41,939 nucleotides of DNA from a virus: the IMG/VR virus record IMGVR_UViG_3300045988_014288, positions 1-41,939 of that record; one strand, 5' to 3'. The first letter of the stretch is position 1; every line of letters begins with the position of its first letter. A program made the translations under genes and the position numbers. The notes beneath the pieces are model-generated. The model made no database searches and had not been told where the DNA came from. It saw only the letters and a list, made by a program, of their open reading frames with translations. This document shows positions 2,300 through 21,370 of the stretch, piece by piece.

Positions 2300-3433
2300 A
2301 TGATGGCAAGAATCGGCAGGGGTGAAGATTATATTCTGACCAATGCTGATGCGTGGAGAATCAGAACACTACAGGAATCCGGCGAACTGCTAGAGGACAT
2401 TCTGGCAGAAATATCCAGATATACCAAACGTGAACAGCAGGAACTTCTTGAAGCGTTTGAAGATGCCGGAATCACTGCAATGAACTATGATGACAAGGTA
2501 TATAAGGCAGCAGGATTAAACCCTGTGCCGCTTGAGCAATCCCCAGCTATGATAAGGCTCATGGAACGAAATATGCTTGCAACCATGGGTGAGTGGAAGA
2601 ACTTCACGCGAACAACCGCAAGTGCCGCTCAAAGGCTTTATATTGAGCAATGCGACCTTGCATATAATCATGTGATGACTGGGGCAGTTGGATATACGCA
2701 AGCTATCAAAGAGGCAGTTAATAACGTTGTGAGTGATGGTGTGACAGTCACATATCCATCTGGTAAAAAAGACACGATTGAAACAGCAGTTGCACGTTCT
2801 GTCAGAACTGGCGTGGCTCAGGCTACGGGAGATATATCCTTAAAGCGCATGGAAGAAATGGACTGGGATTTAATTCTGGTCAGTGCACACATGGGAGCTA
2901 GAACAGGTGACGGCGGTCAGAATCCGGGCAATCACTCATGGTGGCAAGGTAAGATATACTCTCGTTCTGGCAAGAGTAAGAAATTTCCACCATTCTCATT
3001 GACCGGATATGGAACGGCAAGTGGACTGTCAGGAGTCAACTGTCGGCATAGTTTCGGAGCCAGTGACGGGGAATTTAATCCCTATGCAGAACTATCGGCA
3101 CAGGACAAAGCTGACAAAGGCAAGCAGTACGAAAAGGAACAGCGACAACGTACTTATGAACGAAGAATCCGAAAAACAAAGAGAGAAGTCCTTGGAATGC
3201 AATCGGCGGTTGATAACTGCAAGGATGAAAAGACAAGATTTGCGCTCCAACAAGACCTTGACCGGAAGTCTTATCTTTTGCGGAAACAAAATGCTGCATA
3301 CAAAGATTACTGCAAGCAGAACGACCTGAGGGAACTGCAAGACCGGCTCATGATCGCAAAATGGAACCGCCAGAATGCCGCGAAGGCCAGAGGAGCGGCA
3401 AAGAGATATAAAACAGCAAAGGGGATTGACTGA
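2300..3433 (+). CDS. minor capsid / head morphogenesis protein (Phage_min_cap2, SPP1 gp7-like)
   Basis: 377-aa ORF in the position after portal typical of A118/SPP1-type modules, with a basic KR-rich C-terminus. The frame stays open upstream to 2198 and encodes family-like N-terminal sequence (see finding). Confidence 0.75.
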   Translation: MMARIGRGEDYILTNADAWRIRTLQESGELLEDILAEISRYTKREQQELLEAFEDAGITAMNYDDKVYKAAGLNPVPLEQSPAMIRLMERNMLATMGEWKNFTRTTASAAQRLYIEQCDLAYNHVMTGAVGYTQAIKEAVNNVVSDGVTVTYPSGKKDTIETAVARSVRTGVAQATGDISLKRMEEMDWDLILVSAHMGARTGDGGQNPGNHSWWQGKIYSRSGKSKKFPPFSLTGYGTASGLSGVNCRHSFGASDGEFNPYAELSAQDKADKGKQYEKEQRQRTYERRIRKTKREVLGMQSAVDNCKDEKTRFALQQDLDRKSYLLRKQNAAYKDYCKQNDLRELQDRLMIAKWNRQNAAKARGAAKRYKTAKGID

Positions 3434-3819
3434 TGGATGATAGATGGGAATATTTCAATCCGAATCCTGTTAAGGATAAGAGAACAGGAGATTGTGTTGT
3501 CCGGGCAATATGCAAAGCAACTGGTTTTGACTGGGAAACAGTATTCACCGGATTAATGATACAGGCGTGCGCCCTGTCAGATATGCCAAGCGCAAATTAT
3601 GTCTGGGGAGCGTACCTTTATAAGCATGGGTACAGACGCAAACTGATTGAACAGTCAGAACGATATATCTATACAGTCAACGACTTTTGCGCGGACCATC
3701 CGACAGGCACATATATTCTCTGCATAGATGGTCATGTGGTGACAGTACAAGAGGGCAAATATTTCGATACATGGGATTCCGGTAATGAGATCCCGGTATA
3801 TTACTGGGAAAAGGAGTAA
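3433..3819 (+). CDS. conserved phage hypothetical protein, possible Cys/His (papain-like) fold
   Basis: 128 aa with TGATG overlap onto the upstream gene. Motifs GDCVVRAI, DGHVV and DTWDSG recall a recurrent Gram-positive phage family of unknown function. Confidence 0.5.
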   Translation: MDDRWEYFNPNPVKDKRTGDCVVRAICKATGFDWETVFTGLMIQACALSDMPSANYVWGAYLYKHGYRRKLIEQSERYIYTVNDFCADHPTGTYILCIDGHVVTVQEGKYFDTWDSGNEIPVYYWEKE

Positions 3820-3823
3820 CTAA

Positions 3824-4129
3824 ATGAGCATATCAGAATTTGTACAGATTTTCCTCTCTATCTGCGGAGGAGTATCCATTGTCGGAGGGGCGGCAGCCGT
3901 AATTTTTAAGTGGATTACCCCGGCATTCCGACTTAATAAACGGGTAGAGACACTGGAAGAACATGATAGACGAGATTATGAAAGTCTTCGGAGGATCGCA
4001 GAACGTGATTCATTGATTCTGGAAGTGTTATCAACCATGTTGGACAGTCAGATTAGTGGGAACAATGTCGAGGAATTAAAAAAAACAAAACAGAAGCTTA
4101 CAAATTATCTTGCACAGAATCAGCGTTAA
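3824..4129 (+). CDS. membrane-anchored coiled-coil protein (one N-terminal TM helix)
   Basis: RBS AAAAGGAG. Hydrophobic segment FVQIFLSICGGVSIVGGAAAVIF followed by a charged helical tail. The architecture resembles BhlA-like holins, but the family is not established. Confidence 0.6.
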   Translation: MSISEFVQIFLSICGGVSIVGGAAAVIFKWITPAFRLNKRVETLEEHDRRDYESLRRIAERDSLILEVLSTMLDSQISGNNVEELKKTKQKLTNYLAQNQR

Positions 4130-4149
4130 CATTAGTAAGGGGTATGCTC

Positions 4150-4350
4150 ATGAAATTATATGTGTTCACTAAGAAAGATATAGACAGATTCTTGATAGAG
4201 TGTAATTTTACACCGGACGAAGAAAGACTGTTCCGGCTGAGATGTAAGGAATATACGCTTGAATACTGTGCTGAACAGATGAATGTGAGTATCTCCACGG
4301 CGAAACGATTGAGTCGCCGGGTAAACAATAAAATAATTAAAGTATGCTGA
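4150..4350 (+). CDS. stand-alone sigma-70 region-4-like HTH protein (66 aa)
   Basis: FTPDEERLFRLRCKEYTLEYCAEQMNVSISTAKRLSRRVNNKI fits the region 4.2 pattern (E-R-x-x-F-x-LR ... IS-x-x-T-x-K-x-x-x-x-R). The second ATG was chosen because AAGGGG lies 7 nt upstream. Confidence 0.6.
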   Translation: MKLYVFTKKDIDRFLIECNFTPDEERLFRLRCKEYTLEYCAEQMNVSISTAKRLSRRVNNKIIKVC

Positions 4351-4370
4351 TACTTTTTAGACACTAATTA

Positions 4371-4404
4371 GAGCCAGAAACGAACTGTTTCCGGTTCTTT
4401 TTTT
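4371..4404 (+). terminator. intrinsic terminator
   Basis: Stem gagccagaaacg / tgtttccggttc with one mismatch and a 3-nt loop, followed by seven T (4398-4404). Confidence 0.7.
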
Positions 4405-4438
4405 ATGCAAAAATATAATCAGAAAGGTGGTGCATAAG

Positions 4439-4909
4439 ATGGCATTATATAACAATCCTTATCAATATAGTTTTGGCGTTCCGGGACAGATGAACCAATT
4501 TCAGCAACAGCCTGTCCAGATGCCAGCTCAACCAGTACAGCAACCCCAGCAAAATAGTAATGGTATCCTGTGGGTATCTGGCGAAGTAGGCGCAAAATCC
4601 TATCTGGTAGCACCCGGGACAAGTGTTTTACTGATGGACAGTGAAAGCGAAAAGTTCTACATAAAATCCACAGACGTTTCCGGTATGCCACAGCCATTAC
4701 GGACGTTTGAGTATCACGAAATAGGCTCTCAGATGCCACCTAAACAGCCTACTCAGAACATGGACAATAAATATGTCACGAGACAGGAATATGACGATTT
4801 AAAGGGCAAATACGAAGCTATCATAAACCGATTAAATTCTTTTTCTGAACCTGTTAGGGCTAATACCGCACAGGAATCAGCGGTCAAGGGAGGAAACGCA
4901 GATGAGTAA
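4439..4909 (+). CDS. hypothetical protein, Q/P-rich N-terminus plus beta-rich core (cassette gene A)
   Basis: RBS GAAAGGTGG 8 nt upstream of ATG 4439. N-terminal QQQPVQMPAQPVQQPQQ tract, then GILWVSGEVGAKSYLVAPGTSVLLMDSESEKFYIKS. Confidence 0.65.
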   Translation: MALYNNPYQYSFGVPGQMNQFQQQPVQMPAQPVQQPQQNSNGILWVSGEVGAKSYLVAPGTSVLLMDSESEKFYIKSTDVSGMPQPLRTFEYHEIGSQMPPKQPTQNMDNKYVTRQEYDDLKGKYEAIINRLNSFSEPVRANTAQESAVKGGNADE

Positions 4910-5123
4910 TCCATTATTTAACGCGCTCGGTGGTGGGATGTCGCAGGGAAACGGGCCAATGCAGATGATACAGCAGTTTATGCAGTTTAAACAGAATTTT
5001 AAGGGAGACCCGAAAGCAGAAGTTGAGAAGATGCTACAATCTGGAAAGATTTCTCAGCAACAACTTAATCAAGTTCAGCAGATGGCAGGGCAGTTTCAAC
5101 ACATGCTAAAAGGAATGAAATAG
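4902..5123 (+). CDS. hypothetical Gln-rich small protein (73 aa, cassette gene B)
   Basis: RBS GGGAGGA. 15 Gln in 73 aa (MQMIQQFMQFKQNF ... QQQLNQVQQMAGQFQ). Overlaps gene A by 8 nt. Confidence 0.6.
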   Translation: MSNPLFNALGGGMSQGNGPMQMIQQFMQFKQNFKGDPKAEVEKMLQSGKISQQQLNQVQQMAGQFQHMLKGMK

Positions 5124-5177
5124 TACATTACAATCTGGCCAGATTGATGTAAATACACAATAAAGGAGATTATAACT

Positions 5178-5957
5178 ATGGATGGAAATTACAGTTTGTC
5201 AGATATTGCCGCTGCTACTGGAAACGGTAGAAATAATGACGGCATGTTTGGTGGAGATGGTAGCTGGTGGATTATTGTTTTATTCATTTTTGCTTTCTTC
5301 GGATGGGGAAACAATGGCTGGGGCAATAATGGCAACGGTGGCGGATATGCAGCCACAGCAGCTACTCAGGCAGACATTCAGAGAGGATTCGATAACTCCG
5401 CAGTAATCAGCAAGCTTGACGGAATCAATAGTGGCCTGTGTGATGGATTCTATGCCATGAATAACGGTATGCTTACCGGTTTTAACGGAATCAACACAAA
5501 CATCATGCAGACCGGCTTTGGGATCCAGCAGGCAATTAATGCTGATACTGTAGCGAATATGCAGAATACCAATGCTTTACAGGCACAGCTTGCGAACTGC
5601 TGTTGCGAGACTCGGGAAGCTATCCAGGGCGTGAACTACAACATGGCACAGAACACCTGTGCATTGCAGAACACCATGAATAGCAACACAAGAGACATTA
5701 TTGACAGTCAGAATGCTGGAACAAGAGCCATTCTTGATTATCTTTGCAATGAAAAGATTTCTAACCTGCAGGCTGAAAACAATGACCTCAGACGTGCCGC
5801 TTCTCAGGATCGCCAGAGCGCACTGCTCACAACTGCAATGGCTTCTCAGACACAGCAGCTCATTAATGCGATTAATCCGGCACCGATTCCGGCATATCAG
5901 GTTCCTAACCCGAACACATTTTACGGATGCGGATGCAATACTGGATGCAATTGCTGA
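5178..5957 (+). CDS. hypothetical membrane protein, Gly/Asn-rich, 10 Cys including CCC and a C-terminal GCGCNTGCNC (cassette gene C)
   Basis: RBS AAAGGAG. TM segment WWIIVLFIFAFFGW flanked by GG/NG repeats, a long N/Q/T-rich region, and Cys clusters. Confidence 0.65.
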   Translation: MDGNYSLSDIAAATGNGRNNDGMFGGDGSWWIIVLFIFAFFGWGNNGWGNNGNGGGYAATAATQADIQRGFDNSAVISKLDGINSGLCDGFYAMNNGMLTGFNGINTNIMQTGFGIQQAINADTVANMQNTNALQAQLANCCCETREAIQGVNYNMAQNTCALQNTMNSNTRDIIDSQNAGTRAILDYLCNEKISNLQAENNDLRRAASQDRQSALLTTAMASQTQQLINAINPAPIPAYQVPNPNTFYGCGCNTGCNC

Positions 5958-6019
5958 TAACTTCATATCGAGAGTATCTTTCGATTGACTCGAATGTCGG
6001 CTTATGCCGTATTACACAG

Positions 6020-6048
6020 AGGGGCAGGCTGAGACCTGTCCTTTTGTG
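6020..6048 (+). terminator. intrinsic terminator inside the cassette
   Basis: Stem ggggcagg / cctgtcc(t) with a 6-nt loop ctgaga, followed by ttttgtg. Confidence 0.55.
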
Positions 6049-6068
6049 ATATGAAAGGAGTAAAAATT

Positions 6069-6491
6069 ATGGCAGAATTTACAAATGTAGCTGCTCAGAC
6101 TGTAGCAGCAAACGGAAACGTAGTATTTTCAAACACAGCAGTTAAAGGTTCTAACTGTATTCAGCACAGAGAGGGAAGTGGAATCATCACTCTGAGAGGA
6201 CTGACTAATCAGTGCAAAGCGAGATTCTTTGTGGATTTCTCCGGCAACATTGCGATTCCAACAGGCGGCACTGTCGGAACTATTTCTCTGGCTATTGCAA
6301 TTTCTGGCGAGCCGGTTCTTTCTTCACAGATGATCTCCACACCGGCAGCAGTAGATCAGTACAACAATGTGTCCACAGGCATCTATATTGATGTACCTCG
6401 CGGATGTTGCGTTAACATCGCAGTAGAGAACACAAGCGATCAGGATGTTTCTGTTGCGAACGCAAACATTGTTGTGACCAGAGAAGCGTAG
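6069..6491 (+). CDS. hypothetical protein with BclA-C-terminal/C1q-like (TNF jelly-roll) sequence pattern (cassette gene D)
   Basis: RBS AAAGGAG 8 nt upstream of ATG 6069. The pattern Q-x-V-x-x-x-GNVVF ... H-x-x-GS-x-I-x-L ... ISGEPV ... ENTS ... ANIVV resembles exosporium BclA C-terminal domains. Judged by eye only. Confidence 0.45.
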   Translation: MAEFTNVAAQTVAANGNVVFSNTAVKGSNCIQHREGSGIITLRGLTNQCKARFFVDFSGNIAIPTGGTVGTISLAIAISGEPVLSSQMISTPAAVDQYNNVSTGIYIDVPRGCCVNIAVENTSDQDVSVANANIVVTREA

Positions 6492-6502
6492 GAGGTGTGA
6501 TT

Positions 6503-7057
6503 ATGAGAGATATTAAAGACTTATGCGCAAGAATCGAAGATGAACTGTCCAAAATCGCTGACAATGGACTTACCACCGGAAATCTGGAAATGACATACAA
6601 ACTGATTGATATGTACAAAGATATCAAGAATACGCAGTACTGGGATAAGAAAGTAGAGTACTACAACACTGTCCTTGATGAGATGCGTAGCGGCTACAAT
6701 GACGATTACAGCGAACGTGGAAGAAAACGTGACAGTATGGGGAGATACAGCTCAAATGATGGCAGAATGATGCCAGATTACGACCGGGGCAGTTCCTATG
6801 CCAGACGTGGCGAACATTATGTCAGAGGGCATTACAGCCGCTCTGACGGACGAGATGCTTATGACGACTATATGACGCAGAAACAGAGCTATCGCTCCGG
6901 TAAATCTGAGGACTGCAAAAGAAAGATGCTTGCCGCTCTGGAAGAGCATCTGGACGAACTTACAACAGAAATGAGCGATATGTCCAAGGATGCAGAATGC
7001 CGGGAAGAACGTGATCTTGTAAAGAGATACGTAGAAAAACTCCGTGATATGCTCTAA
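6503..7057 (+). CDS. hypothetical protein, helical ends around an R/S/Y/D/G-rich low-complexity core (cassette gene E)
   Basis: RBS AGGAGG 7 nt upstream of ATG 6503. Central stretch SERGRKRDSMGRYSSNDGRMMPDYDRGSSYARRGEHYVRGHYSRSDGRDAYDDY. Confidence 0.65.
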   Translation: MRDIKDLCARIEDELSKIADNGLTTGNLEMTYKLIDMYKDIKNTQYWDKKVEYYNTVLDEMRSGYNDDYSERGRKRDSMGRYSSNDGRMMPDYDRGSSYARRGEHYVRGHYSRSDGRDAYDDYMTQKQSYRSGKSEDCKRKMLAALEEHLDELTTEMSDMSKDAECREERDLVKRYVEKLRDML

Positions 7058-7063
7058 AAACGC

Positions 7064-7103
7064 AAAAGTGGTAGAGAGGTAGTTAAAATAAATCTGTTAT
7101 AAT
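7064..7103 (+). promoter_or_regulatory. promoter, copy A: AAAAGTGGTAGAGAG - 16 nt - TGT TATAAT
   Basis: The 15-nt motif is identical to 38296-38310 and has identical 16-nt spacing to an extended -10 (TGnTATAAT). It lies upstream of the scaffold and capsid genes. Confidence 0.6.
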
Positions 7104-7189
7104 GTAATTGTGCAGCAGGAAGCACAAGTAAAACGGTTGTTTTTGACATTTTCGTTTTAATCCTCCTTTCTTTAATTTTTGTAGCTGGT

Positions 7190-7237
7190 GCGCACGCTTA
7201 ATGGAAAGTTAAGCAGGTTCGAGTCCTGCCGTGCGTA
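7190..7237 (+). ncRNA. tRNA-like module 1 (acceptor stem + single hairpin + canonical T-arm; no D-arm)
   Basis: GCGCACG (7190-96) pairs with CGTGCGT (7230-36). Hairpin CTTAA-TGGAAAG-TTAAG (7197-7213). T-arm GCAGG-TTCGAGT-CCTGC (7213-29). Discriminator-like A at 7237. Confidence 0.5.
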
Positions 7238-7384
7238 TTTGCCATCTGGCACGCAAGATGGCTCACCTCCTTGATTAAGGTTTTTGTTATTCATACTTTT
7301 CTTTAAAAAAGAAATAAATATCCGAAACAACTCGTGGCAGGCATGACACGTTAAACACCTTGCTAACCCGGGAATCTGGGTTAT

Positions 7385-7455
7385 GTGGAACCTATCGGCT
7401 ATAGAACGAATATCTATAGATACAAGTTTTCCAGTTCGACTCTGGAAGCTCCACT
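7385..7455 (+). ncRNA. tRNA-like module 2 (imperfect acceptor stem + 7-bp hairpin + canonical T-arm; no D-arm)
   Basis: GTGGAAC (7385-91) pairs with GCTCCAC (7448-54) at 6/7. Hairpin CTATAGA-ACGAATA-TCTATAG (7399-7419). T-arm TCCAG-TTCGACT-CTGGA (7430-46). Confidence 0.45.
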
Positions 7456-7530
7456 TACCTCGCCAGTGGTCTAACTGGCTTAATCCATACCTGCGGCGGC
7501 AGGTCAATAAAAACGGCCAGGAGGATATAT

Positions 7531-8163
7531 ATGCAGAAACTTATTGACACATTAAAATCATTTGGAATTGAAATCCCGGAGGATAAACAGGCAGATGTTA
7601 AGAAAGCACTCTCTGAACATTACAAAAATGCAAAGGAAGTAGCGAAAACTCTGTCAAAAGTTGAGGGAGAACGAGATGACTGGAAAGAACGTGCCGAGAC
7701 AGCAGAAGAAACCTTGAAAGGGTTTGACGGTATCGACCCGGCAAACATTCAGACAGAGCTTGCTGGATGGAAAAAAAAAGCGGAGAACGCAGAAAAAGAG
7801 TTTAATGCGAAAATCTATGACCGCGATTTCTCAGATGCGCTCAAAGCGGCACTCGACGATGTTAAGTTTTCTAGTGAAGCGGCAAAGAAGTCTGTTATGG
7901 CAGACATCAAAGAAGCAGGTCTTAAGCTGAAAGACGGTAAAATCCTTGGACTGAATGACCTGATTGAGCAGATGAAGCAGTCTGACGCATCCGCTTTTGT
8001 GGATGAATCTCAGCAGCAGGCTCAGCAGAATCAGGCAAGATTTACCACTCATGTTGGACAGCAGCAGACACCGGGAAACATGACAAAGAAAGATATCGAA
8101 GCAATCAAAGACCCGTCCGAGAGACAGGCTGCAATTGCTCAGAACATCCAGTTATTCCAGTAA
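7531..8163 (+). CDS. scaffolding protein (GP20-like minor structural protein)
   Basis: RBS AGGAGGA. 210 aa, highly charged and helical, K/E/A-rich with a Q-rich C-terminus. Sits immediately upstream of the major capsid gene. Confidence 0.8.
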   Translation: MQKLIDTLKSFGIEIPEDKQADVKKALSEHYKNAKEVAKTLSKVEGERDDWKERAETAEETLKGFDGIDPANIQTELAGWKKKAENAEKEFNAKIYDRDFSDALKAALDDVKFSSEAAKKSVMADIKEAGLKLKDGKILGLNDLIEQMKQSDASAFVDESQQQAQQNQARFTTHVGQQQTPGNMTKKDIEAIKDPSERQAAIAQNIQLFQ

Positions 8164-8238: not shown

Positions 8239-9408
8239 ATGCCAGCAAAAACTAATCTTATTATGACTAGTGATATTCAGGTCACAGCACGTGAGATTGA
8301 TTTTGTTACCAGATTCGAAAGAAACTGGCAGCACTTACGTGACATTCTGGGTATCATGAGACCTATCAAAAAGCAGCCGGGTGCTGTACTCAAGTCTAAA
8401 TATGCAGAGGGTACTTTACAGAGCGGAAATGTTGGTGAGGGCGAGGAAATCCCTTACAGCAAGTTTACTGTAAAAGAAAAGACCTATGCAGAAATGACTA
8501 TCGAAAAGTACGCAAAGGCTGTATCTATCGAAGCAATTAAGGATCACGGTTATGAGAACGCTGTTCAGATGACCGATGATGAATTCCTTTTCCAGCTTCA
8601 GACTGATGTTACCAGCAGATTCTACGACTATCTGAAAACCGGTACACTTACTTCCACAGAAACAACATTTCAGATGGCTCTGGCAATGGCTAAAGGCCGT
8701 GTAGAAAACAAATTCAAACAGATGCACAGAAATGTGACTGGCGTTGTTGGGTTTGTCAACATTCTGGACGTATATGAATACCTCGGAGCAGCTGAGATCA
8801 CTATTCAGAACCAGTTCGGATTCCAGTACATGAAAGATTTCATGGGGTTCAATACAATCTTCCTGTTATCCGACAGTGAAATCCCGAGAGGACAGGTTAT
8901 CGCTACTCCCGTTGAGAACATCGTACTTTACTATGTTGATCCGAACGAATCTGACTTCGCAAGAGCAGGACTTGTATACACTGTATCTGGCGAGACAAAC
9001 CTGATCGGATTCCATACACAGGGCAACTACCACACAGCAGTGTCCGAAGCGTTCGCGGTTATGGGTCTTACTCTTTTTGCGGAGTACATTGACGCAATCG
9101 CAGTAATCACCATTGATGAGACACCGACCCTCGGTACTCTGACAGTAAATTCCGCGGCTGGAACAGCAAGTGGCGACACAAAAATCACTGTAAATCCGGC
9201 TAAGGAAAGTGCTGGCAATGTGTATAAATACAAAGTTGCGGCAGACGCAGTAACTGTTGGATATGGACAGAACCTCAGAAATTGGACTTCTTGGGACGGA
9301 AAAGCTGACATCAAGGCAGCAACCGGACAGAAGATCACAGTAGTTGAGTGTGATGGAACATACAAGGCACTGAATGCCGGAAGCGCAAGCGTAACAGCAA
9401 AATCATAA
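8239..9408 (+). CDS. major capsid protein (HK97-fold type) with C-terminal Ig-like extension
   Basis: 389 aa following the scaffold gene. The C-terminal ~95 aa (TLGTLTVNSAAGTASGDTKITVNP...ITVVECDGTYKA...) looks like a beta-sandwich Ig-like domain. Confidence 0.8.
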   Translation: MPAKTNLIMTSDIQVTAREIDFVTRFERNWQHLRDILGIMRPIKKQPGAVLKSKYAEGTLQSGNVGEGEEIPYSKFTVKEKTYAEMTIEKYAKAVSIEAIKDHGYENAVQMTDDEFLFQLQTDVTSRFYDYLKTGTLTSTETTFQMALAMAKGRVENKFKQMHRNVTGVVGFVNILDVYEYLGAAEITIQNQFGFQYMKDFMGFNTIFLLSDSEIPRGQVIATPVENIVLYYVDPNESDFARAGLVYTVSGETNLIGFHTQGNYHTAVSEAFAVMGLTLFAEYIDAIAVITIDETPTLGTLTVNSAAGTASGDTKITVNPAKESAGNVYKYKVAADAVTVGYGQNLRNWTSWDGKADIKAATGQKITVVECDGTYKALNAGSASVTAKS

Positions 9409-9929: not shown

Positions 9930-10445
9930 ATGAATTTTAAAGAAGCGTTTAAACTTATGAAACAGGGAGCAAAAGTAAAACTCCCGGGTTGGAATGGCTA
10001 CTGGTGTTGGGATGATGAAAAACATACGATTATGATTCATTGCAGACCAAAAGATTCTGATGAAGGTCAGGGAGAAGTTCTCGATATCCGTGAAACGCAG
10101 AGAGTGGAATACACTTTCATGCACACGCAGAGAGATGATTGGATGATTGCTGATGAGAATAACTGTGGTGTCCTTGGCGGTCAGTCAACATTTGGATTTG
10201 GTGATGCTATCCGTTATCTAAAAAGGGGACTTAAAGTGGCTCGTAAAGGTTGGAATGGAAAGAAACAGTACATTCAGCTTGCCACTGGTATTTCTTATAA
10301 GATAGCGGATGGAGAGATTGTGAACTGTGAGCATGATGCAATCGGAAACAATGCCATTGCTTTTGTCGGAACATCTGGTGTACAGATGGGATGGGTTGCA
10401 TCTCAGGCAGATATGTTAGCAGAGGATTGGATTTTCGCAGAATAG
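9930..10445 (+). CDS. tandem DUF2829 (Tad2-like, Thoeris anti-defence family) protein
   Basis: Two repeats of the DUF2829 signature: MNFKEAFKLMKQGAKVKLPGWNG...DDWMIAD and FGDAIRYLKRGLKVARKGWNGKKQYIQL...GWVASQADMLAEDWIFAE. Confidence 0.7.
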   Translation: MNFKEAFKLMKQGAKVKLPGWNGYWCWDDEKHTIMIHCRPKDSDEGQGEVLDIRETQRVEYTFMHTQRDDWMIADENNCGVLGGQSTFGFGDAIRYLKRGLKVARKGWNGKKQYIQLATGISYKIADGEIVNCEHDAIGNNAIAFVGTSGVQMGWVASQADMLAEDWIFAE

Positions 10446-10459
10446 GAGGCATCCAGATA

Positions 10460-10729
10460 ATGGATATTTCAACATTAGGCTCATGCATCGCAATCGTTAT
10501 GATTTGCTACATCGTAGGAATGGGATGTAAAGCATCAAAAAGAATCTCTGATGAATGGATTCCAGTAATCATGGCGGTTATTGGTGGAATTCTCGGAGCA
10601 GTCGGAATGGGAGTTATCCCAGATTTCCCGGCAACGGATTACATCACGGCAGTTGCAGTCGGTATGTTTAACGGATTGTCGGCAACTGGTGTGAATCAGG
10701 TTATTAAGCAGGCAGCGCAGAAAGAATAA
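10460..10729 (+). CDS. holin (Listeria A118 Hol118 / Phage_holin_5-like)
   Basis: RBS GGAGG 10 nt upstream of ATG 10460. 89 aa with 2-3 TM segments. The pattern K-x-x-x-I-x-x-x-WIPVIMAVIGGILGA...GLSATGVNQVIKQ matches the Hol118 family layout. Confidence 0.65.
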   Translation: MDISTLGSCIAIVMICYIVGMGCKASKRISDEWIPVIMAVIGGILGAVGMGVIPDFPATDYITAVAVGMFNGLSATGVNQVIKQAAQKE

Positions 10730-13802: not shown

Positions 13803-16655
13803 ATGGCTGCTGATGGCTCAGTCATTATTGATACCAGAATGGACACATCAGGTGTGCAAAACGGCGTATCAGCTATAAAACAGTCATTTAACGGCCTTGG
13901 AAGTGCTGTAAAAAAAATCGGTCTGCTGATTGGTGGAGCATTCGCAATTGGGAAACTGGCCCAGTTTGGGAAAGAGTGCGTAGAGCTTGGCTCTAATCTG
14001 GCAGAAGTGCAGAACGTGGTCGATGTTACATTTACAACCATGTCTGATAAGGTCAATGAATTTGCAAAGAATGCCATGACCACTGCTGGTCTGTCGGAAA
14101 CGATGGCGAAACAGTATGTCGGAACGTTCGGAGCAATGTCTAAGTCGTTCGGATTCTCAGAAGCACAAGCTTACGACATGTCAACAGCTCTGACGCAGCT
14201 GACTGGTGACGTAGCATCGTTCTATAACATCAGTCAGGACTTGGCTTATATCAAGCTGAAATCAGTGTTTACGGGCGAAACAGAAACACTCAAGGACCTC
14301 GGCGTGGTAATGACCCAGTCGGCACTTGACCAGTATGCACTAGCTAATGGCTATGGCAAAACCACATCCGCCATGAGCGAACAGGAGAAAGTTGCCCTCC
14401 GTCTGGCTTTTGTACAGAAGCAGTTATCAGCTGCATCTGGTGACTTTATCCGTACTTCTGATAGCTGGGCAAACCAGGTCAGGGTAATGCAGTTACAGCT
14501 ACAATCTCTCAAGGCAACAGTTGGACAGGGATTGATTAATATTTTTACACCTGTGCTGAAAGTTATTAATATCTTATTAGGTAAGCTGGCAACTCTGGCG
14601 AATGCCTTCAAGTCATTTACGGAGTTAATCACCGGGAAAAAATCTTCTGGTCAGACAGGTGCAAGCGGCGCAGGCCTTGCCGGGACAGATGCAATAGCTG
14701 ATACGGCAGATCAATATGGAAATGCTGCCGACAATGCCGAAAAGCTGGCAGATGCAACAAATGATACAGCGGACGCAACTAAAAAAGCTACTAAAGCGGC
14801 AAAAGGATATCTTAGTCCTCTTGACGAAATAAATAATTACTCAACGGATAAAAGCACAGATTCATCGTCAAAAGTACCGGGCGCAACCGGCGGACTTGCA
14901 GATCAGATGAAAGATGCTGTACAAAATGTTGATTATGGAAAATTGGCAGAGGGTGAGACAGCCCTTGACAAAATTAGCAAATCAGCTGAAAAGCTCGCGA
15001 AGCTCCTTAAAAAGCTCTGGAAGCCATTTCAGGACGCTTGGAAAAAAGAGGGTAAGAATACTATTGATGCGGCACAGATTGCTCTATCTGGAATTGCGAA
15101 GCTTGCTAAGAGTGTAGGCAGGAGTCTCATGGAAGTCTGGACAAACGGTACAGGTACGACAATGCTTACAACCATGCTAAGGATTGCTCAGAACGTGCTT
15201 AAAACTATTGGGAATATTGCATCCGGTTTTGCCGATGCGTGGAATAAGAACAATGTCGGAACGCAGATTATACAGAACATCGCAGATGCTCTTGTGGTGG
15301 TTATGCAGTTCATTGAGAGGATTGCCGCAGATACGGCAACATGGGCGGCGAACCTCAATTTCTATCCGCTACTGGAATCTATCAGTAATCTGACGGCAAC
15401 CTTTGCGCCGATTCTGGAGGCAATTGGAAACGTGCTGGAAGGAATTTACAATAATATCGTCCTTCCGATGCTTAAATGGGTGATTGAGACAGGACTTCCG
15501 ACAGTAATTAATTTGATTTCTGGTCTGCTTGATTTTTTTGCTCAGCATCAGGCTATCGTTGAAGCATTTGGTGCAGCATTAATCGGTGCGTTTGCAGCAG
15601 TCAAAATCGCAGGATTAGCAAAGAGCATTGTTGGAAGCATTACGATTATTGTGGATTTTGTGAAAGGGCTTATTGCTCTTATGACAGGTTCCGGAGGGAT
15701 TATTGGCGGAATTAAAGCCATCGCGGTAGCGATTGGCCCGGGAGGAATATTTGCTATCGCTATTGCAGCTGCTATAGCTGTTGGCGTATTGTTATACAGG
15801 AACTGGGACGAAATATGCGCGGCAGCAACAAAATTAAAAGACTGGGTTGTTGAAAAGACTCGTGAATTGTCAGAATCAGCAACACGTACATTAAGCAATT
15901 TGAAAGAAAAGATAGCTAATGTTTGGAATATTATTAAAACATCAACATCTACTACTTGGAACGCAATCAAAAAGACACTTTCTGGCCTTTGGAACTCTCT
16001 TAAATCCACAGCCAGCACAGTATTTAATGCAATTAAAACCAAAGTTACTGGCATTTGGGATAAAATAAAAGGCAAGACATCTCGAACATGGGAAAGTGTT
16101 ACTACTTTTATATCTACTAAGGTCGAAGCGATAAAAACCGCTATTACTGATAAGTTTAATGCTGCCAGAGATGCAGTCAGATCTGCATTTGAAGGTATTG
16201 TGGGTTTTATTAAAGCTCCGATTAATCAGGCAATCAGCATTGTTAATAATGCAGTTGGGATGATTAATAATGCAATTGGTGGAATTGAATCTGCATTTTC
16301 TTTTGGTCCATGGGATGTGCCTACGCCATTCGGAACAAAGAGAATCGGTTTTCATGCAACATTTCCACGTGTCGGAACTATCCCATATCTGGCCAGTGGC
16401 GCAGTTATTCCGCCAAGGTCAGAATTCCTTGCGGTATTAGGTGACCAGAAAAAAGGAAATAACCTGGAAACACCGGAAAGCCTGTTACGGCAGATTGTTC
16501 GGGAGGAGTCAGGGAAAGGACAGGAAGGTGGAAATACCTATAATGTTACAGTCAACGCATCTGGCAGAAAATTGTTAGATATTATCATTGATGAAGCAGA
16601 GCTTAGGAGACGCAGAAATGGCGGTCAGAATCCATTCTTGTTAGGAGGTGTGTAA
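13803..16655 (+). CDS. tape measure protein
   Basis: 950 aa, RBS TAGGAGGTGG. Ala/Gly-rich helical protein with a central hydrophobic block and W-x-x-IK repeats. Confidence 0.9.
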   Translation: MAADGSVIIDTRMDTSGVQNGVSAIKQSFNGLGSAVKKIGLLIGGAFAIGKLAQFGKECVELGSNLAEVQNVVDVTFTTMSDKVNEFAKNAMTTAGLSETMAKQYVGTFGAMSKSFGFSEAQAYDMSTALTQLTGDVASFYNISQDLAYIKLKSVFTGETETLKDLGVVMTQSALDQYALANGYGKTTSAMSEQEKVALRLAFVQKQLSAASGDFIRTSDSWANQVRVMQLQLQSLKATVGQGLINIFTPVLKVINILLGKLATLANAFKSFTELITGKKSSGQTGASGAGLAGTDAIADTADQYGNAADNAEKLADATNDTADATKKATKAAKGYLSPLDEINNYSTDKSTDSSSKVPGATGGLADQMKDAVQNVDYGKLAEGETALDKISKSAEKLAKLLKKLWKPFQDAWKKEGKNTIDAAQIALSGIAKLAKSVGRSLMEVWTNGTGTTMLTTMLRIAQNVLKTIGNIASGFADAWNKNNVGTQIIQNIADALVVVMQFIERIAADTATWAANLNFYPLLESISNLTATFAPILEAIGNVLEGIYNNIVLPMLKWVIETGLPTVINLISGLLDFFAQHQAIVEAFGAALIGAFAAVKIAGLAKSIVGSITIIVDFVKGLIALMTGSGGIIGGIKAIAVAIGPGGIFAIAIAAAIAVGVLLYRNWDEICAAATKLKDWVVEKTRELSESATRTLSNLKEKIANVWNIIKTSTSTTWNAIKKTLSGLWNSLKSTASTVFNAIKTKVTGIWDKIKGKTSRTWESVTTFISTKVEAIKTAITDKFNAARDAVRSAFEGIVGFIKAPINQAISIVNNAVGMINNAIGGIESAFSFGPWDVPTPFGTKRIGFHATFPRVGTIPYLASGAVIPPRSEFLAVLGDQKKGNNLETPESLLRQIVREESGKGQEGGNTYNVTVNASGRKLLDIIIDEAELRRRRNGGQNPFLLGGV

Positions 16656-17033
16656 ATGGCACAGGAGCAGTTTAAGATTGACGGGGTCATTATAAAGGCC
16701 CCTGACGCATACAAGCCGGTGTTCGCAACTACATCAACGGAAAGCTCTAAGAGAAGCCAGGACCTTGTTATGCATAACACGCCAATGGGAACTATTGCCG
16801 GATATGACATGGAATGGGGCGAGCTTAAATGGGGAGAGATTGCAACGATTCTCAACTCTATGATTAATAAAAGCCAGTTTACTTTTCATCATAAAGACCC
16901 TCGGACGCCCGGCAAATGGATTGACAAAACGTTCTATGCATCTAATTTCAACATGGCAGCGCAAACGCTCAAAGATAATGAGGAACGATGGACAGGATTA
17001 ACTATTAATGTAAGGAGCATTCGACCGGTATGA
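16656..17033 (+). CDS. putative short distal tail protein
   Basis: 125 aa immediately after the tape measure, RBS TAGGAGGTG. Assignment rests on position only. Confidence 0.45.
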   Translation: MAQEQFKIDGVIIKAPDAYKPVFATTSTESSKRSQDLVMHNTPMGTIAGYDMEWGELKWGEIATILNSMINKSQFTFHHKDPRTPGKWIDKTFYASNFNMAAQTLKDNEERWTGLTINVRSIRPV

Positions 17034-20000
17034 TTAATGTTACAAATCAGTTAAAAACAGAATCTCTCTCAAATAGTAACTATTATGTTACGGCGAATGC
17101 GGTGCTGCGTGATGGGACAACTTTAAGCCTGGAAAAAGAAGATTTTTACCTTGACGGAAACGGCATTGTAGATTCTTCTGATTCCGGGGACTTCCCGATA
17201 GGTGTAGCCATTGAAAAAACAGCAACATTGGCACTGGTCAATGATGATGATAGGTTCTCTGACTACAACTTTGCCGGAGCACAGTTTACTCTATTCTTAA
17301 ATTTGAAATTGTCTGATAGATTGGAAACCATTCGCCGTGGCACATTTATTGTGTCGAAAAAGCCCGCCACGTCCGATGAGATTAACCTTACTTTGTTGGA
17401 CTATATGAGTAAGGCGGAGGCGGACTACAAAACGAATCTTGTCTTCCCATGCTCTGCAGGAGAGGTTTTAGAAGATGCCTGTCAGCAGACCGGGATTGTA
17501 TTAGGTGACGCAACATTTAAAAACGCAGACTATCAGGTGCAGAATAAGCCGGAAAACACCACTTTTAGAGCAGTAATCGGTATGGTTGCGGCTCTGGCAG
17601 GCGGCAACGCTCGCATTGATGAGAATGATAATTTGCGAATCATCACTTTTAACGATGGTGCGGACACTATCACATTAGAAACAGTTCCATGGTATGACGT
17701 TAATGGAAGCACTATCCTTGACGTTGGAAGTAACGAGATTGAGACAGTTCTTGAGCGAAAAGGATTTAATCTAAATGCTATCAGGAATCTTACCTATGAT
17801 GTCGATGACGTGGTTGTTACTGGGGTCAAATATACAGATAATGAAACAGAATATAAGTACGGTACAGACGGATATGTCATCACGATTGACAACAAGCTTC
17901 TGAGTGGCAATGAACAGGCAGGCATTGACCTGATTGGAAAAGAACTTGTCGGTATGAGATTAAGACCGTTCTCTTGCGACAGCACAGCGATTGGATATGC
18001 CACATTTGGAGATAGAGTTACATTTTCCGACATTAAAGGCAATATTTACTATTCATATCTGACAGATGTAGACTTCGCATTCTCTGGCAGCACAAGTTTT
18101 TCTTGTAATGCAAAAAGCATGGAGGATATCAATGCTGACTATCCAGACAGCATGCAAGTCGAGGTTGACAACATAAAGAAAGATTCTGAGAAAAAGATTA
18201 CTGCCTATGATGCAAAATTAAAGCAGATGAACGAACTGGCAGCCAACACCCTTGGGTTTTACTATACAGAAGAAATCCAGTCAGATGGATCCACGATATC
18301 ATACCGGCACGACAAACCCACACTTGCTGATTCTAAAGTAATCTACAAGACGGGTGCTGATGGATTTTTCTTGTCAGTAGACGGAGGCCAGGCTTGGAAA
18401 GCCGGATTTGATAGTAACGGTGACGCTGTGTTGAATATCCTTTATGCGATTGGCATACAATCTGATTGGATCAACGCAAGAGGATTCACGGCAAAAGACA
18501 ATGACGGGAACATTACGTTCCGTATTGACGCAGAGACAGGGGCTGTCAATCTTAATGCCACAGAGCTTACAATTAAAGGGAAGACGCCTGAGAACGTGGC
18601 AAATGCCGAGGTTGAGAAGTTCATTACAGAGGTGTATTCTCCGCAGATTAAGGTTCTTCAGGAGCAGATTGACGGGCAGATAGAAGCATTCTTTGGAGAC
18701 TATGTTCCTGATAGTAACAATGAACCGGCATCCACTTGGACAGATGATACAACTAAAAAGAAACACTTAGGTGACCTGTTTTACATCGTAAACAACGAAG
18801 AATATGGCGGACAGGCTTACAGATATGCAAAGATCAATGGCGAATACAAGTGGGACTATGTAAAAGATACTGCAGTGGTTAAAGCTCTGGCAGATGCGGC
18901 AAAAGCTCAGGGCACAGCGAATGTAAAGAAAAGAATATTTGGAGCGGAACCAGTGCCCCCTTACGACATTGACGATTTATGGGTTCAGGGAAAGGTCGGG
19001 GACATCCTTAAATGTCAAAAGGCAAAGGCAGAAGGCGCAAGCTATGACGCCGATGACTGGGTGAGAGCATCTAAATATACAGATGATTCTACAATCACAG
19101 CATTTATCAAAGGCGTTTTTGCTGATACAATCGAAAGTCTTCAAGAGCAGCTTGATGGTAAGATTCAGACCTGGAGTCAGGATACAGACCCGGCACTTGA
19201 ATGGACAGAAACAGAAGAGATTCCGTGGGCAGATGCTGGCGGTAATTCTATTCTGGATGTAGACGGAAATGAGATTTTAATTGTCTGGGAAAAAGGCAAA
19301 TATATCCACAAAGGAGACCTTTGGCAGAACACCTCGGGTGGCAACACACGCTGGCGATGGGATGGCAGTGAATGGGTCGAGCAGAAAACACCGGATTATC
19401 TGTTTGATAAGATTGACGGTAAAGCGGCAGTCTATTTTGAACAGCCAAAGCCACCGTATAACATGGGGGATTTCTGGATCACATCAAAGGCAAATGGTGA
19501 AGCCTCTATCAAAACAGCAGTCAGAAGCCGAGTGGACGGTGCATTTACTGACACTGACTGGATTGATTTCAAATATGTGGACAAAACCGACATTGATAAT
19601 GCGGTCAAGGAGTATGATACAAGTCTTGGTCAGGACGAGGTATTTAATAAGCTGACAAACGGCGGTGAAGACCAGGGAATTTATATACAGGATGGGAAAC
19701 TGTATATTAATGCAAATTACATCCTTGCAGGACTTTTAGCGGGCAAATTTATCAATGCTAAAGGCATAAAGGTTATTGATAAGGACAACCAAACAACTTT
19801 ATACATTGATGATAGCGGGAAAGTTCATATTCTTGCCACCGAATTTTCTTTGCAGGGCAAGAGCGTATCCGATATTGCCACGGATGCGGCTACGGAAGAA
19901 GCGAAGAAGTACAAAACTCTGAATGTAATGTTATCGAATGAGTATCAGAGTATTCCAACAGACTCCGCAGGCAACTATACAACGTTCCCTGATTGCAAAA

Positions 20001-21370
20001 CGACAGTAACGGCATTATACGGTGATGAAAATGTCACAAGCAGTGCAACTATAACATTTACTGCCGGAAGTGGTGTTGCAGGTTCAAAAACAGGGGCAAC
20101 GTATACAGTAACTAAGCTTACGAGTGACATAGGAACTGTTGCGGTTAATGTTTTGTATAACGGTCTTTCTGTAGAAAAACAGTTTACTATTGCAAAGCAG
20201 AAGCAGGGAAGTACCGGAAACGGAATCTCCAAAATTACGCAATATTACCTTGCTTCTTCAAATTCATCGGACGTGACGACGTCCACATCAGGTTGGACGG
20301 AAACAGTGCAGACACCGACATCATCTGAAAGATACTTATGGAATTATCAGACGACCACATATACGGACAAAACAACTGTAAATACTACTCCACATGTAAT
20401 TGGTGTATATGGTGAAAGCGGTAAGGATGGGAAAGACGGCAAAGACGCATCAGATATGACTCAGTTGGATATCTTTAACAAATTAACCAACAACGGGGAA
20501 ACGCAGGGACTATATCTTTATGACAACAAGGTATATCTGAATGCCTCGTATATTGACACCGGGTTTCTGGCTGGATGGAAAGTTGGATATAAAAATCTTT
20601 CAGCAAGTGGCACGTATGGAGAGGTAACGCTAGACGCTTCAGCTGGAGAGATCTATTCAGAGACGAATACAGGGGTATATGTGCCGGGGTACGGGACATT
20701 GTATGGAACACGAATTAGAGGAATCGATCTTTATACAGGAACTGTACACGCAAACTCGGTCTCGGTTGACACCAGCGTTTCAGCGGACAGTGTTTCAGCA
20801 TCAAAAAAAATTAAAGCAGGTACACATGTAGAAGCCAGCGGACACTTTTACAGCATTGGCACAGGCACCGACCTTGCAGATTTAAGTGTGCGCGGAACAA
20901 AGAAGAGGATTTTTCCAACAAAAAACTATGGCACACAGGCGTTTTATTGCTACGAAATGGCGTCCCCCATGTTTGGAGATATCGGAGAAGCGTCCATATC
21001 AGAAGACGGCACATGCCTGATAGACATAGATGATATATTCCAAGAGTCTACGAATGTAGGTATTGAATATTATGTATTTTTGCAAAAAGAAGGGGATGGA
21101 GATTGTTGGATAGACCAAAAAGAGCAGACATATTTCACTGTAAAAGGTACTCCAGGGCTTAAATTTGCATTCGAAATTAAAGCACGACAAGCTGACTATG
21201 AACACATGCGATTTGCTGATGCGAGCGAAACGGCTTACGATAGGGCAATAGACACAGACATGCCAGAGCCAGACTACAGTGAAAGCCTTGAAGTATCAGA
21301 ACCAGATTATGAAAAAGAACTTTTTAGTGACAGGGAAAAAATTATTGACGAAATGGGGAGAATATCATGA
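17030..21370 (+). CDS. tail tip / tail-associated (Tal-like) protein fused to a fibre, putative receptor-binding protein
   Basis: 1446 aa. The N-terminal ~370 aa resemble prophage tail (gp27-like) domains. Also has internal duplicated FNKLTN-G-E-QG-Y...Y-NA-YI...G-LAG modules, GDLW/GDFW repeats and a GKDGKDGKD collagen-like stretch. Confidence 0.75.
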   Translation: MINVTNQLKTESLSNSNYYVTANAVLRDGTTLSLEKEDFYLDGNGIVDSSDSGDFPIGVAIEKTATLALVNDDDRFSDYNFAGAQFTLFLNLKLSDRLETIRRGTFIVSKKPATSDEINLTLLDYMSKAEADYKTNLVFPCSAGEVLEDACQQTGIVLGDATFKNADYQVQNKPENTTFRAVIGMVAALAGGNARIDENDNLRIITFNDGADTITLETVPWYDVNGSTILDVGSNEIETVLERKGFNLNAIRNLTYDVDDVVVTGVKYTDNETEYKYGTDGYVITIDNKLLSGNEQAGIDLIGKELVGMRLRPFSCDSTAIGYATFGDRVTFSDIKGNIYYSYLTDVDFAFSGSTSFSCNAKSMEDINADYPDSMQVEVDNIKKDSEKKITAYDAKLKQMNELAANTLGFYYTEEIQSDGSTISYRHDKPTLADSKVIYKTGADGFFLSVDGGQAWKAGFDSNGDAVLNILYAIGIQSDWINARGFTAKDNDGNITFRIDAETGAVNLNATELTIKGKTPENVANAEVEKFITEVYSPQIKVLQEQIDGQIEAFFGDYVPDSNNEPASTWTDDTTKKKHLGDLFYIVNNEEYGGQAYRYAKINGEYKWDYVKDTAVVKALADAAKAQGTANVKKRIFGAEPVPPYDIDDLWVQGKVGDILKCQKAKAEGASYDADDWVRASKYTDDSTITAFIKGVFADTIESLQEQLDGKIQTWSQDTDPALEWTETEEIPWADAGGNSILDVDGNEILIVWEKGKYIHKGDLWQNTSGGNTRWRWDGSEWVEQKTPDYLFDKIDGKAAVYFEQPKPPYNMGDFWITSKANGEASIKTAVRSRVDGAFTDTDWIDFKYVDKTDIDNAVKEYDTSLGQDEVFNKLTNGGEDQGIYIQDGKLYINANYILAGLLAGKFINAKGIKVIDKDNQTTLYIDDSGKVHILATEFSLQGKSVSDIATDAATEEAKKYKTLNVMLSNEYQSIPTDSAGNYTTFPDCKTTVTALYGDENVTSSATITFTAGSGVAGSKTGATYTVTKLTSDIGTVAVNVLYNGLSVEKQFTIAKQKQGSTGNGISKITQYYLASSNSSDVTTSTSGWTETVQTPTSSERYLWNYQTTTYTDKTTVNTTPHVIGVYGESGKDGKDGKDASDMTQLDIFNKLTNNGETQGLYLYDNKVYLNASYIDTGFLAGWKVGYKNLSASGTYGEVTLDASAGEIYSETNTGVYVPGYGTLYGTRIRGIDLYTGTVHANSVSVDTSVSADSVSASKKIKAGTHVEASGHFYSIGTGTDLADLSVRGTKKRIFPTKNYGTQAFYCYEMASPMFGDIGEASISEDGTCLIDIDDIFQESTNVGIEYYVFLQKEGDGDCWIDQKEQTYFTVKGTPGLKFAFEIKARQADYEHMRFADASETAYDRAIDTDMPEPDYSESLEVSEPDYEKELFSDREKIIDEMGRIS

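Follow-up and report, generated by a model that had tools for sequence, protein, structure and literature searches.

What is the role of a run of small genes of unusual composition that interrupts the head genes of a gut phage? The question is raised by the IMG/VR virus record IMGVR_UViG_3300045988_014288, analysed here over its whole length (positions 1 to 41,939; this stretch of 41,939 nucleotides is hereafter the window), in which five genes, termed A to E, lie between the genes for the minor capsid protein and the scaffold (Table 1). The window is the complete genome of a temperate siphophage; near-identical phages are abundant in human faecal viromes, and, among cultured carriers of a related cassette, Lachnospira intestinalis is the closest. 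An earlier description made from the letters alone (the sequence-only reading) had taken the five genes for a self-contained, moron-like cassette of compositionally aberrant proteins and had compared the products to spore-surface proteins of Bacillota. The comparative analysis presented here indicates that A to E very probably belong to a mobile accessory module and have no part in head assembly. The module as a whole is tentatively explained as encoding a stalk-and-head complex, anchored in the membrane and acting upon the infected or lysogenic cell, a model to which a probability of roughly 0.45 is assigned.

Gene content, position and regulation of the module

All five open reading frames (ORFs) are present and co-oriented on the plus strand. 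The longest ORF of A begins with GTG at 4427, but the ribosome-binding site and public gene calls favour the ATG at 4439, and the same two kinds of evidence favour 6069 as the start of D; the end of A and the start of B overlap by 8 nt. A scan of IMG/VR for C returned near-identical copies only, which are unsuited for describing diversity and were used for an analysis of selection, comparing synonymous with nonsynonymous codon differences in approximately 60–75 close copies at about 91% nucleotide identity. The five are real genes under strong purifying selection: the ratios of synonymous to nonsynonymous differences are 1222:382 for A, 822:147 for B, 2187:151 for C, 1953:353 for D and 2220:159 for E, with 2021:449 for the major capsid protein (MCP) as a comparison, and none of these copies carries an internal stop in A to E.

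The odd composition of the proteins is confirmed by residue counts. A has a Q/P-rich N-terminus; Gln makes up 21% of B (15 of 73 residues); C contains 15% Asn, 11% Gly and 4% Cys, with CCC at residues 141–143 and the C-terminal sequence GCGCNTGCNC; and E contains 11% Arg, 9% Tyr and 13% Asp. The description as aberrant does not extend to the DNA, and compositional foreignness of the cassette was rejected because its GC content (0.44–0.46) lies inside the genome range (0.35–0.46). Similarly, the claim that the products match no family is correct for Pfam, NCBIfam, PADLOC and PDB sequences, where A to E gave no significant match (the PDB sequences being searched with single sequences of A, C, D and E and with profiles of p128, D and A), but each of the five is assigned to a PHROG without known function.

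The extent of the unit was established from loci other than these close copies. One genome per species was scanned with the alignment of C homologues, yielding 64 diverse loci, and iterative profile searches covered all ORFs of 68 loci, 38 of which were regarded as complete, C being flanked by 2.5 kb or more on either side. Co-occurrence of the five genes is borne out, since the order A-B-C-D-E is conserved across the 68 diverse loci, and the conserved co-oriented order including two companion genes is sig68, which encodes a helix-turn-helix (HTH) protein, p128, A, B, C, D and E. In the complete loci, A is found 35 times, sig68 27, E 26, D 24, B 23 and p128 20 times; the scaffold gene accompanies the module in 11 of these loci, the minor capsid gene in nine and the MCP gene in three. 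The core of five genes therefore stands, but the unit comprises five to seven genes, as it extends upstream to sig68 and usually p128.

The position of this unit varies among phages. According to the PHROG annotation of the flanks, the module lies between the minor capsid and scaffold genes in the window and in loci L001, L093–L099, L108, L110, L140 and L142. It directly follows the endolysin gene in all five compact Bacillota loci tested (L111, L114, L117, L122 and L127), the HK97-type portal and MCP genes in L103 and L129, and tail genes in L091, and it is situated beside an anti-repressor gene in the early region of L002 and L084. Dulem virus 33 encodes an MCP homologous to that of the window, yet carries p128-A-B-C-D-E between endolysin and integrase. 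A homologous MCP without the cassette is encoded by Dorea phage DO134P1 (53% identical), Flavonifractor phage Chenonceau (60%), where other small genes occupy the equivalent slot, and Streptococcus phage 315.5. In view of its varying position and its absence from phages whose capsids are homologous, the module is considered a mobile accessory unit, dispensable for the window's head type, and the gap that separates the minor capsid and scaffold genes an insertion hot spot. These observations, together with a conserved terminator and a −10-like box of its own, agree with the description as a self-contained, moron-like cassette outside the assembly operon. Of the properties that mark morons, patchy presence among relatives and varying positions are found here, whereas a distinct nucleotide composition is not.

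It follows that A to E are most improbable as ordinary components of the window's head type, such as a scaffold accessory, decoration or cement proteins. The one point in favour of this explanation is that, in the window and its relatives, the five genes lie between those for the minor capsid protein and the scaffold. It appears largely refuted by comparative genomics, given the variable position and the absence from phages with homologous heads; moreover, C contains a membrane-anchor segment, the cassette has its own terminators and regulator, and none of A to E matches a head-protein family, all PHROG matches being of unknown function and no obligate linkage to capsid genes being found.

The junctions inside the module are insertion hot spots as well. 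In Dulem virus 33 (L158), a homing endonuclease gene is located on the opposite strand between B and C (4178–4729, minus strand), and extra ORFs of 180–371 residues are inserted at the C–D junction in L093, L095 and L108. Long homologues of C, D and p128 were considered as domain fusions and set aside, as they look like assembly or gene-calling chimeras.

The two companion genes suggest processing and control. The p128 gene, which lies outside the cassette as originally delimited, adjoins it in 32 of the 68 loci. Its product is a putative papain-like peptidase in which D20, C21, H101 and D112 are invariant in 121 diverse homologues (47–62% identical to the window protein); it is labelled “endopeptidase” in one public source and has no match in Pfam, NCBIfam or PDB sequences. 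A transglutaminase-type activity may be an alternative. Approximately 95% of the family contains a CxxC motif (consensus PDxCPDCYT) where the window protein has E76 and I79, with Cys21, His101 and Asp112 intact. The sig68 gene is located immediately upstream of the cassette in 38 of the 68 loci, and its product is likely a regulator of the module, as judged from weak matches to Sigma70_r4 and TIGR02937, which fall under the curated cut-offs and cover region 4 only. It is called “ECF sigma factor” or “UPF0251 DNA-binding protein” by different sources. The assignment as an extracytoplasmic function (ECF) sigma factor fails, since region 2 is absent, and a region-4-like HTH protein is the better description. 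A reading of sig68, C and p128 as ECF sigma factor, anti-sigma factor and protease was rejected as well, with sig68 lacking region 2 and C lacking an anti-sigma domain. Between p128 and sig68, the window encodes a 101-residue protein (3824–4129, plus strand) with an N-terminal membrane segment and a coiled coil (DUF4083 in one source); it accompanies the module in only six of the 68 loci and is probably a separate small insertion.

The terminators described upstream of and inside the cassette are genuine hairpins by folding energy (z-scores in Table 1), although a consensus scan listed the one at 4382–4397 and missed the hairpin at 6015–6048. The internal terminator splits A-B-C from D-E, at the C–D junction where other lineages have inserted ORFs. 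A hairpin with a T-run is found directly 3′ of sig68 in 29 of 31 diverse loci as opposed to 18.5% of control windows. It is followed in the window by a conserved ATGCAAAAATATAAT box, located just ahead of the ribosome-binding site of A. The motif TTTT[AG]T*TG..AAAAT occurs in 11 of the 31 spacers downstream of sig68, from diverged lineages, compared with 0.3% of control windows, and in these 11 lineages the T-run continues into an (A/G)TG..AAAAT(ATAAT) box. Since this non-coding sequence is kept across cassettes whose C proteins are only 30–50% identical, the element appears to be functional. The hairpin and the TTTTTTTATGCAAAAATATAAT box probably constitute a combined terminator and promoter/operator unit and a candidate target of sig68; no −35 element is found at the −10-like box upstream of A.

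Downstream of E, a promoter had been placed at 7064–7103. Its extended −10 box, TGTTATAAT, is present, but a −35 element is absent and the consensus scan did not call it, so that this promoter is plausible only. The gap of 470 nt between E and the scaffold gene (7058–7530) contains no convincing ORF and is poorly conserved among close relatives. It includes a tRNA-like fragment with a GGTTCGAGTCC T-arm at 7190–7237 (Rfam tRNA 18.5 bits, E 0.37; nothing by ARAGORN), and an Rfam search of the gap returned nothing above threshold.

Proteins C and D, their partners and their distribution

C is the hallmark of the module and, according to its structure model and alignment, an anchored hendecad stalk protein. 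Its outline consists of an acidic N-terminal tail (on average 3.1 D/E vs 0.5 K/R), a Gly-flanked hydrophobic anchor (approximately residues 29–43), a long helix, a PxPxPAY motif and a Cys-rich C-terminus. The model exhibits a short hydrophobic helix with disordered Gly-rich flanks, a single helix spanning residues 73–232 and a disordered Cys tail, with a predicted local distance difference test score (pLDDT) above 88 for residues 130–240; the helix measures about 160 residues or about 24 nm. Averaged over the family, hydrophobicity peaks at a period of 3.65, near 11/3, with no power at 3.5, which points to about 14 hendecads. Hendecads are typical of straight coiled coils. The CCC motif is 97% conserved and occupies core positions, and Cys161, Cys251/253 and PxPxPAY are also conserved. 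A Foldseek search with the model returned no match, owing to its being a single long helix. The proposed likeness of C to YjcZ finds no counterpart in NCBIfam or Pfam, where no YjcZ match was obtained; C has 259 residues including a helix of 160, while YjcZ is a very small Gly-rich membrane peptide.

The C family comprises 2,149 clusters at 50% identity (E ≤ 1e-3). Homologues are encoded by many Crassvirales, by the Bacteroides uniformis phage C3_41T2LP and by viruses of Methanomassiliicoccales; C thereby crosses three host phyla, one of them archaeal. Among 50,697 phage records, those with C were limited to gut-metagenome, Clostridium perfringens, Bacteroides and crAss-like phages and to Methanomassiliicoccales viruses. 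No match was obtained in these records in phages of Bacillus, Staphylococcus, Streptococcus or Lactococcus, although those share the MCP family. The Bacillota hosts of the cassette are mostly Clostridia. In the Bacteroides phage, the module stands beside RecT and single-stranded DNA-binding protein genes and ends with an annotated PolyVal-type metallopeptidase. Conservation across phyla is claimed for C alone, because profile–profile comparisons of Bacillota A and D with crAss proteins at the same position were not significant. In the crAss-like loci L154 (cr52_1; 3483–5464) and L156 (cr273_1; 3501–6582), the C-like and neighbouring ORFs contain in-frame stops under code 11, which fit the stop-codon recoding reported for some Crassvirales.

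For D, an AlphaFold model built from an alignment of 120 diverse sequences (pLDDT 93.2) predicts a compact ten-strand jelly roll that superposes on the BclA C-terminal domain (CTD) and on C1q and TNF domains. A Foldseek search against the PDB gave 125 matches at E ≤ 1e-3, among them the F-BclA CTD (9h38; E 5e-8, template modelling (TM) score 0.71–0.76), EDA-A1 (1rj7), BclA (1wck), BxpB (8d02), ExsFA (7r1m), C1q heads and phage fibre knobs, and many stand-alone gut-phage proteins of 130–142 residues in BFVD share the fold. In its modelled structure, D is a TNF/C1q/BclA-like jelly roll, and the pattern noted in the sequence-only reading is correct at the level of the fold. Membership of the BclA or C1q sequence families does not hold, as the curated BclA_C, C1q and TNF families gave no Pfam or NCBIfam match at E ≤ 1 and a profile search of PDB sequences gave nothing significant. 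D is a stand-alone domain of 140 residues without a collagen-like (GXX)n stalk, in which C49, C113 and C114 are 98–100% conserved.

The D position is occupied by three small, beta-rich and Cys-bearing families that differ by lineage and are unrelated in sequence, here D, D2 and D3. D2 includes the versions of C. perfringens phages, and D3 is found in crAss-like and Bacteroides phages; a profile–profile comparison of D2 with D3 gave a probability of only 23%. Even in closely related cassettes, D is swapped for unrelated small proteins. The other three proteins are of low complexity at least in part. A, present in 52 of the 68 loci and always just upstream of B and C, consists of an N-terminal tail rich in Q, P and Y, a conserved small core rich in beta structure and a coiled coil at the C-terminus, as seen in the alignment. 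B (36 of 68 loci) is rich in Gln and Met and helical by eye. E (43 of 68 loci, always directly after D) has helical ends, again by eye, around a low-complexity core that is rich in Arg, Tyr, Ser, Asp and Gly in the alignment. No signal peptides are visible in the sequences of A, B, D and E.

These data bear on the suggestion that BclA-, YjcZ- and CotG-like proteins join or mimic the coat or exosporium of Bacillota in the course of lysogenic conversion of the spore or cell surface. The best structural matches of D are indeed exosporium proteins (F-BclA, BclA, BxpB and ExsFA), the Bacillota hosts are mostly Clostridia, and Cys-rich, Tyr/Arg/Ser-rich and Gln-rich proteins together with a Cys-His-Asp enzyme recall cross-linked coats. 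Nevertheless, C homologues occur in phages of non-sporulating Bacteroidota and in viruses of methanogenic archaea, and none was found in phages of the aerobic spore-former Bacillus among the 50,697 records; this spread across phyla and the restriction to strict gut anaerobes argue against a spore-specific role. The YjcZ and BclA families gave no sequence match, and the CotG-like character ascribed to E has no relevant Pfam or NCBIfam match or any family linking it to CotG. Furthermore, neither secretion signals nor sporulation-type promoters were identified, and D is replaced by unrelated proteins in close relatives. The spore-surface reading is hence very improbable.

Possible functions of the module

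In the proposed model, A-B-C would be expressed as a translationally coupled block, followed by the terminator and the D-E pair, with sig68 closed by a terminator of its own. C would oligomerise, and the resulting straight coiled coil, a stalk about 24 nm long, would be kept in the cytoplasmic membrane by the Gly-flanked anchor, with the acidic N-tail on the outside and the stalk on the cytoplasmic side. Two observations guide this placement, the acidity of the N-tail and the lack of signal peptides in A, B, D and E. At its tip, which is rich in Pro and Cys, C may dock a small Cys-bearing beta-protein (D in the window, unrelated beta-rich proteins elsewhere), with thiols or a bound metal mediating the contact. 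The low-complexity proteins A, B and E would serve as assembly or linker factors, p128 would mature a component and the HTH protein sig68 would control expression. The likeliest role of such a complex would be a conflict function at the membrane, for example superinfection exclusion, or another phage–phage or phage–host conflict. Cargo of this kind is usual in the slot between lysin and integrase.

The model draws on the mobility of the module, the co-occurrence of its genes, its own regulation, the structures of C and D, the invariant residues of p128, the purifying selection and the neighbouring insertion of a Tad2-like gene (see below). Several points weigh against it. Neither homology nor experiment ties any component to a function, and the contact between C and D, the oligomeric state, the topology in the membrane and the role in exclusion are proposals; for the topology, flanking charges are a weak signal only. 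Known superinfection-exclusion systems usually consist of one or two proteins and not of five to seven, and PADLOC returned no defence family. In the crAss-like phages, the likeness of the partner proteins to A, D and E is limited to position and composition. Finally, many phages carry the module inside structural operons and co-oriented with late genes, which fits a virion-associated role.

Such a role would make the module a virion-associated cargo: its products would be either internal or ejection proteins that are packaged, or a fibre of the capsid or neck. Under this reading, C would act as a long pilot protein that inserts into membranes and E as a basic protein associated with DNA, p128 would be the maturation protease and D the knob of a fibre, with the multi-gene internal proteins of the P1 Dar system and podophage ejection proteins as analogues. 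In many lineages, the module is flanked by the minor capsid and scaffold genes or comes directly after the MCP gene, in the orientation of late genes, and long single helices and disordered proteins would suit passage through a tail channel. A peptidase accompanies the module, an annotated PolyVal-type metallopeptidase ends it in the Bacteroides phage, TNF-like knobs are known from phage fibres (cyanophage A-1(L)) and spikes (phi812), and the wide range of hosts points to a function that is inherent in the virus. On the other hand, the module is also located in early regions beside anti-repressor or recombination genes and in the lysin–integrase slot; it is missing from homologous-capsid phages and most Crassvirales, so that no capsid depends on it; packaging into crAss-like, SPP1-like, HK97-like and archaeal capsids would need generic targeting; and a dedicated HTH gene and terminator are unusual for structural genes. 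Cargo is therefore considered an unlikely explanation.

An accessory role in lysis or egress, with C acting like a spanin or a lysis regulator and its partners tuning or completing the disruption of the envelope, is considered improbable. It derives from the position directly after the endolysin in the five compact Bacillota loci, from a distance of 1–3 kb to holin or endolysin genes in the crAss-like cr116_1, cr1_1, cr273_1 and cr52_1, and from the outline of C, which has the N-terminal anchor, long helix and conserved Cys of an i-spanin. In the window, however, the cassette lies about 15 kb from the endolysin gene, and the end of the late operon is the usual insertion site of morons. Moreover, monoderm hosts need no spanin, a lipoprotein partner is absent, and the same C family is found in monoderm, diderm and archaeal hosts with differing envelopes.

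Returning to the membrane-anchored stalk-and-head complex, a bolder version is conceivable, though doubtful: the module may encode a new multi-protein membrane apparatus of the anaerobic gut virome, with a Gly-anchored C stalk, a buried CCC layer and interchangeable D, D2 or D3 heads, which perhaps are joined by thiol or metal chemistry that works only in strict anaerobes. If true, this would be an apparatus without a characterised counterpart, for example for exclusion of phage DNA, for tethering of replication or assembly, or as a redox-sensing switch.

Irrespective of the function, the window's own clusters at 90% identity have 183 to 4,093 members each, which places the module among the commonest uncharacterised gene sets of human-gut phages. 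A conserved, mobile unit of five to seven genes that seemingly regulates itself and is unlike known systems implies a selectable function of a kind that phage biology has yet to describe. Literature on the PHROG identifiers, the cultured phages and BclA/C1q proteins in prophages yielded no description of the module and no virion proteomics. Relatives of the module have cultured carriers in Clostridium perfringens phages, such as HMD-PC1 and vB_CpeS-17DYC, and Bacteroides phage C3_41T2LP. For annotation, the locus advises caution, as genes between portal and capsid genes need not be structural.

Genomic surroundings and known systems

The coordinates of the module and of the main genes around it are given in Table 1; anti-repressor and primase-helicase genes are also encoded in the window.

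Table 1. Coordinates in the window of the module, its candidate signals and the surrounding genes.
Feature	Position	Strand	Remarks
SPP1 gp7-like minor capsid protein	2300-3433		
p128, putative papain-like (Cys-His-Asp) peptidase	3433-3819	+	
sig68, 68-residue sigma-70 region-4-like HTH protein	4144-4350	+	phrog_1190 “sigma factor”
Intrinsic terminator closing the sig68 transcript	4382-4404	+	hairpin 4382-4397 and T7 run; folding energy (dG) -12.7 kcal/mol, z -3.4
Conserved box (T-run / TGC / A-run / TATAAT)	4405-4419	+	candidate -10 element or operator for A-B-C
A	4439-4909	+	phrog_21718; 156 residues in public gene calls
B	4902-5123	+	phrog_22984; 73 residues
C	5178-5957	+	phrog_16490; 259 residues
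Internal terminator between A-B-C and D-E	6015-6048	+	14-bp stem, then UUUUGUG; dG -22.6 kcal/mol, z -5.7
D	6069-6491	+	PHROG without known function; 140 residues in public gene calls
E	6497-7057	+	phrog_28802
Extended -10 box	7095-7103	+	candidate promoter restarting the head operon (scaffold at 7531)
Scaffold	7531-8163		
Major capsid protein	8239-9408		
Tape measure protein	13803-16655		
Tail protein	17030-21370		
Endolysin	22089-23507		
Integrase	23833-25104	-	
Terminase	38664-40311		

Other features of the window stand apart from the module. In the head–tail connector region, a tandem Tad2-like protein of 171 residues (anti-Thoeris, PF11195; 9930–10445, plus strand) with two domains (E 8e-26) is a second accessory or anti-defence insertion within the structural late operon. 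A holin of the Hol44 family (PF16079, E 4e-23; 10391–10729, plus strand) is likewise encoded among the connector genes, about 11 kb upstream of the endolysin gene, and Dulem virus 35 has a “holin” at the equivalent place (L001, 10612–10869). Between the portal and the minor capsid protein, proteins of 553 residues (192–1853) and 87 residues (1867–2130), both on the plus strand, have the common N-terminal motif M-x-Y-[IL]-P-[ED]-P-V-T-R...YL and no Pfam match; they may represent a fibre-like protein and its truncated paralogue. The lysogeny/early region contains a full-length FuFi-1 small RNA (Rfam RF02986; 26940–27099, minus strand) scoring 136 bits against a gathering score of 59.6.

Among known systems, the exosporium proteins of Bacillus are closest to D, which is predicted to have the same jelly roll as the BclA CTD and BxpB/ExsFA (TM 0.70–0.76, Foldseek E 5e-8 to 1e-5) and, like BxpB/ExsFA, is a stand-alone protein of about 140 residues. 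In PDB 9h3d, ExsF is bound to a peptide of an anchor protein, which sets a precedent for a partner's terminal peptide serving as the docking site of a small TNF-like trimer. D differs in its identity of 10–14%, its lack of a Pfam BclA/C1q family and of a collagen-like stalk, and its being encoded by a phage.

In its genomic behaviour, the module resembles the lysin-attachment-site morons, such as the toxin and exclusion genes carried by prophages of Streptococcus and Staphylococcus, in that it is terminator-flanked with a −10-like box, patchy in distribution and often situated between endolysin and integrase. It is larger than these, with five to seven genes in fixed order, and is also found in virulent-type crAss-like phages and in head operons; no toxin, adhesin or known exclusion family was found in it with Pfam, NCBIfam and PADLOC. 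The Dar system of phage P1 is a precedent for a multi-gene, head-linked accessory set that is packaged and injected, dispensable for assembly and includes processed proteins. Dar proteins have no sequence or fold relation to A to E and no membrane anchor.

Two further systems share an outline with C. Like the lambda Rz/Rz1 spanins, C has an N-terminal anchor, a long helix, conserved Cys residues and a Pro-rich element near the presumed interacting end, and is often encoded near lysis genes. The module differs from them in that it has no lipoprotein partner, its hosts are mostly monoderm, the helix of C is predicted to be of hendecad type and neither heptad nor hinged, and lysis genes are far away in the window. 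The features that define an i-spanin are not found for C in the window: a lipoprotein ORF is absent, Lachnospira is the nearest cultured host and the endolysin gene is distant. The ZorA tail of Zorya is likewise a very long helical tail on a membrane anchor, and a match of C residues 76–232 to it was the sole PADLOC hit (13 bits, E 0.007). This match falls below a meaningful threshold and is explained by coiled-coil composition; the module has no MotA-like channel domain, ZorB or effector genes, and the models of PADLOC do not identify it as a known anti-phage defence system. The module is therefore placed outside the known kinds of system, its likeness to them being one of fold in the case of D, and one of outline in the case of C, which recalls both an i-spanin and the ZorA tail.

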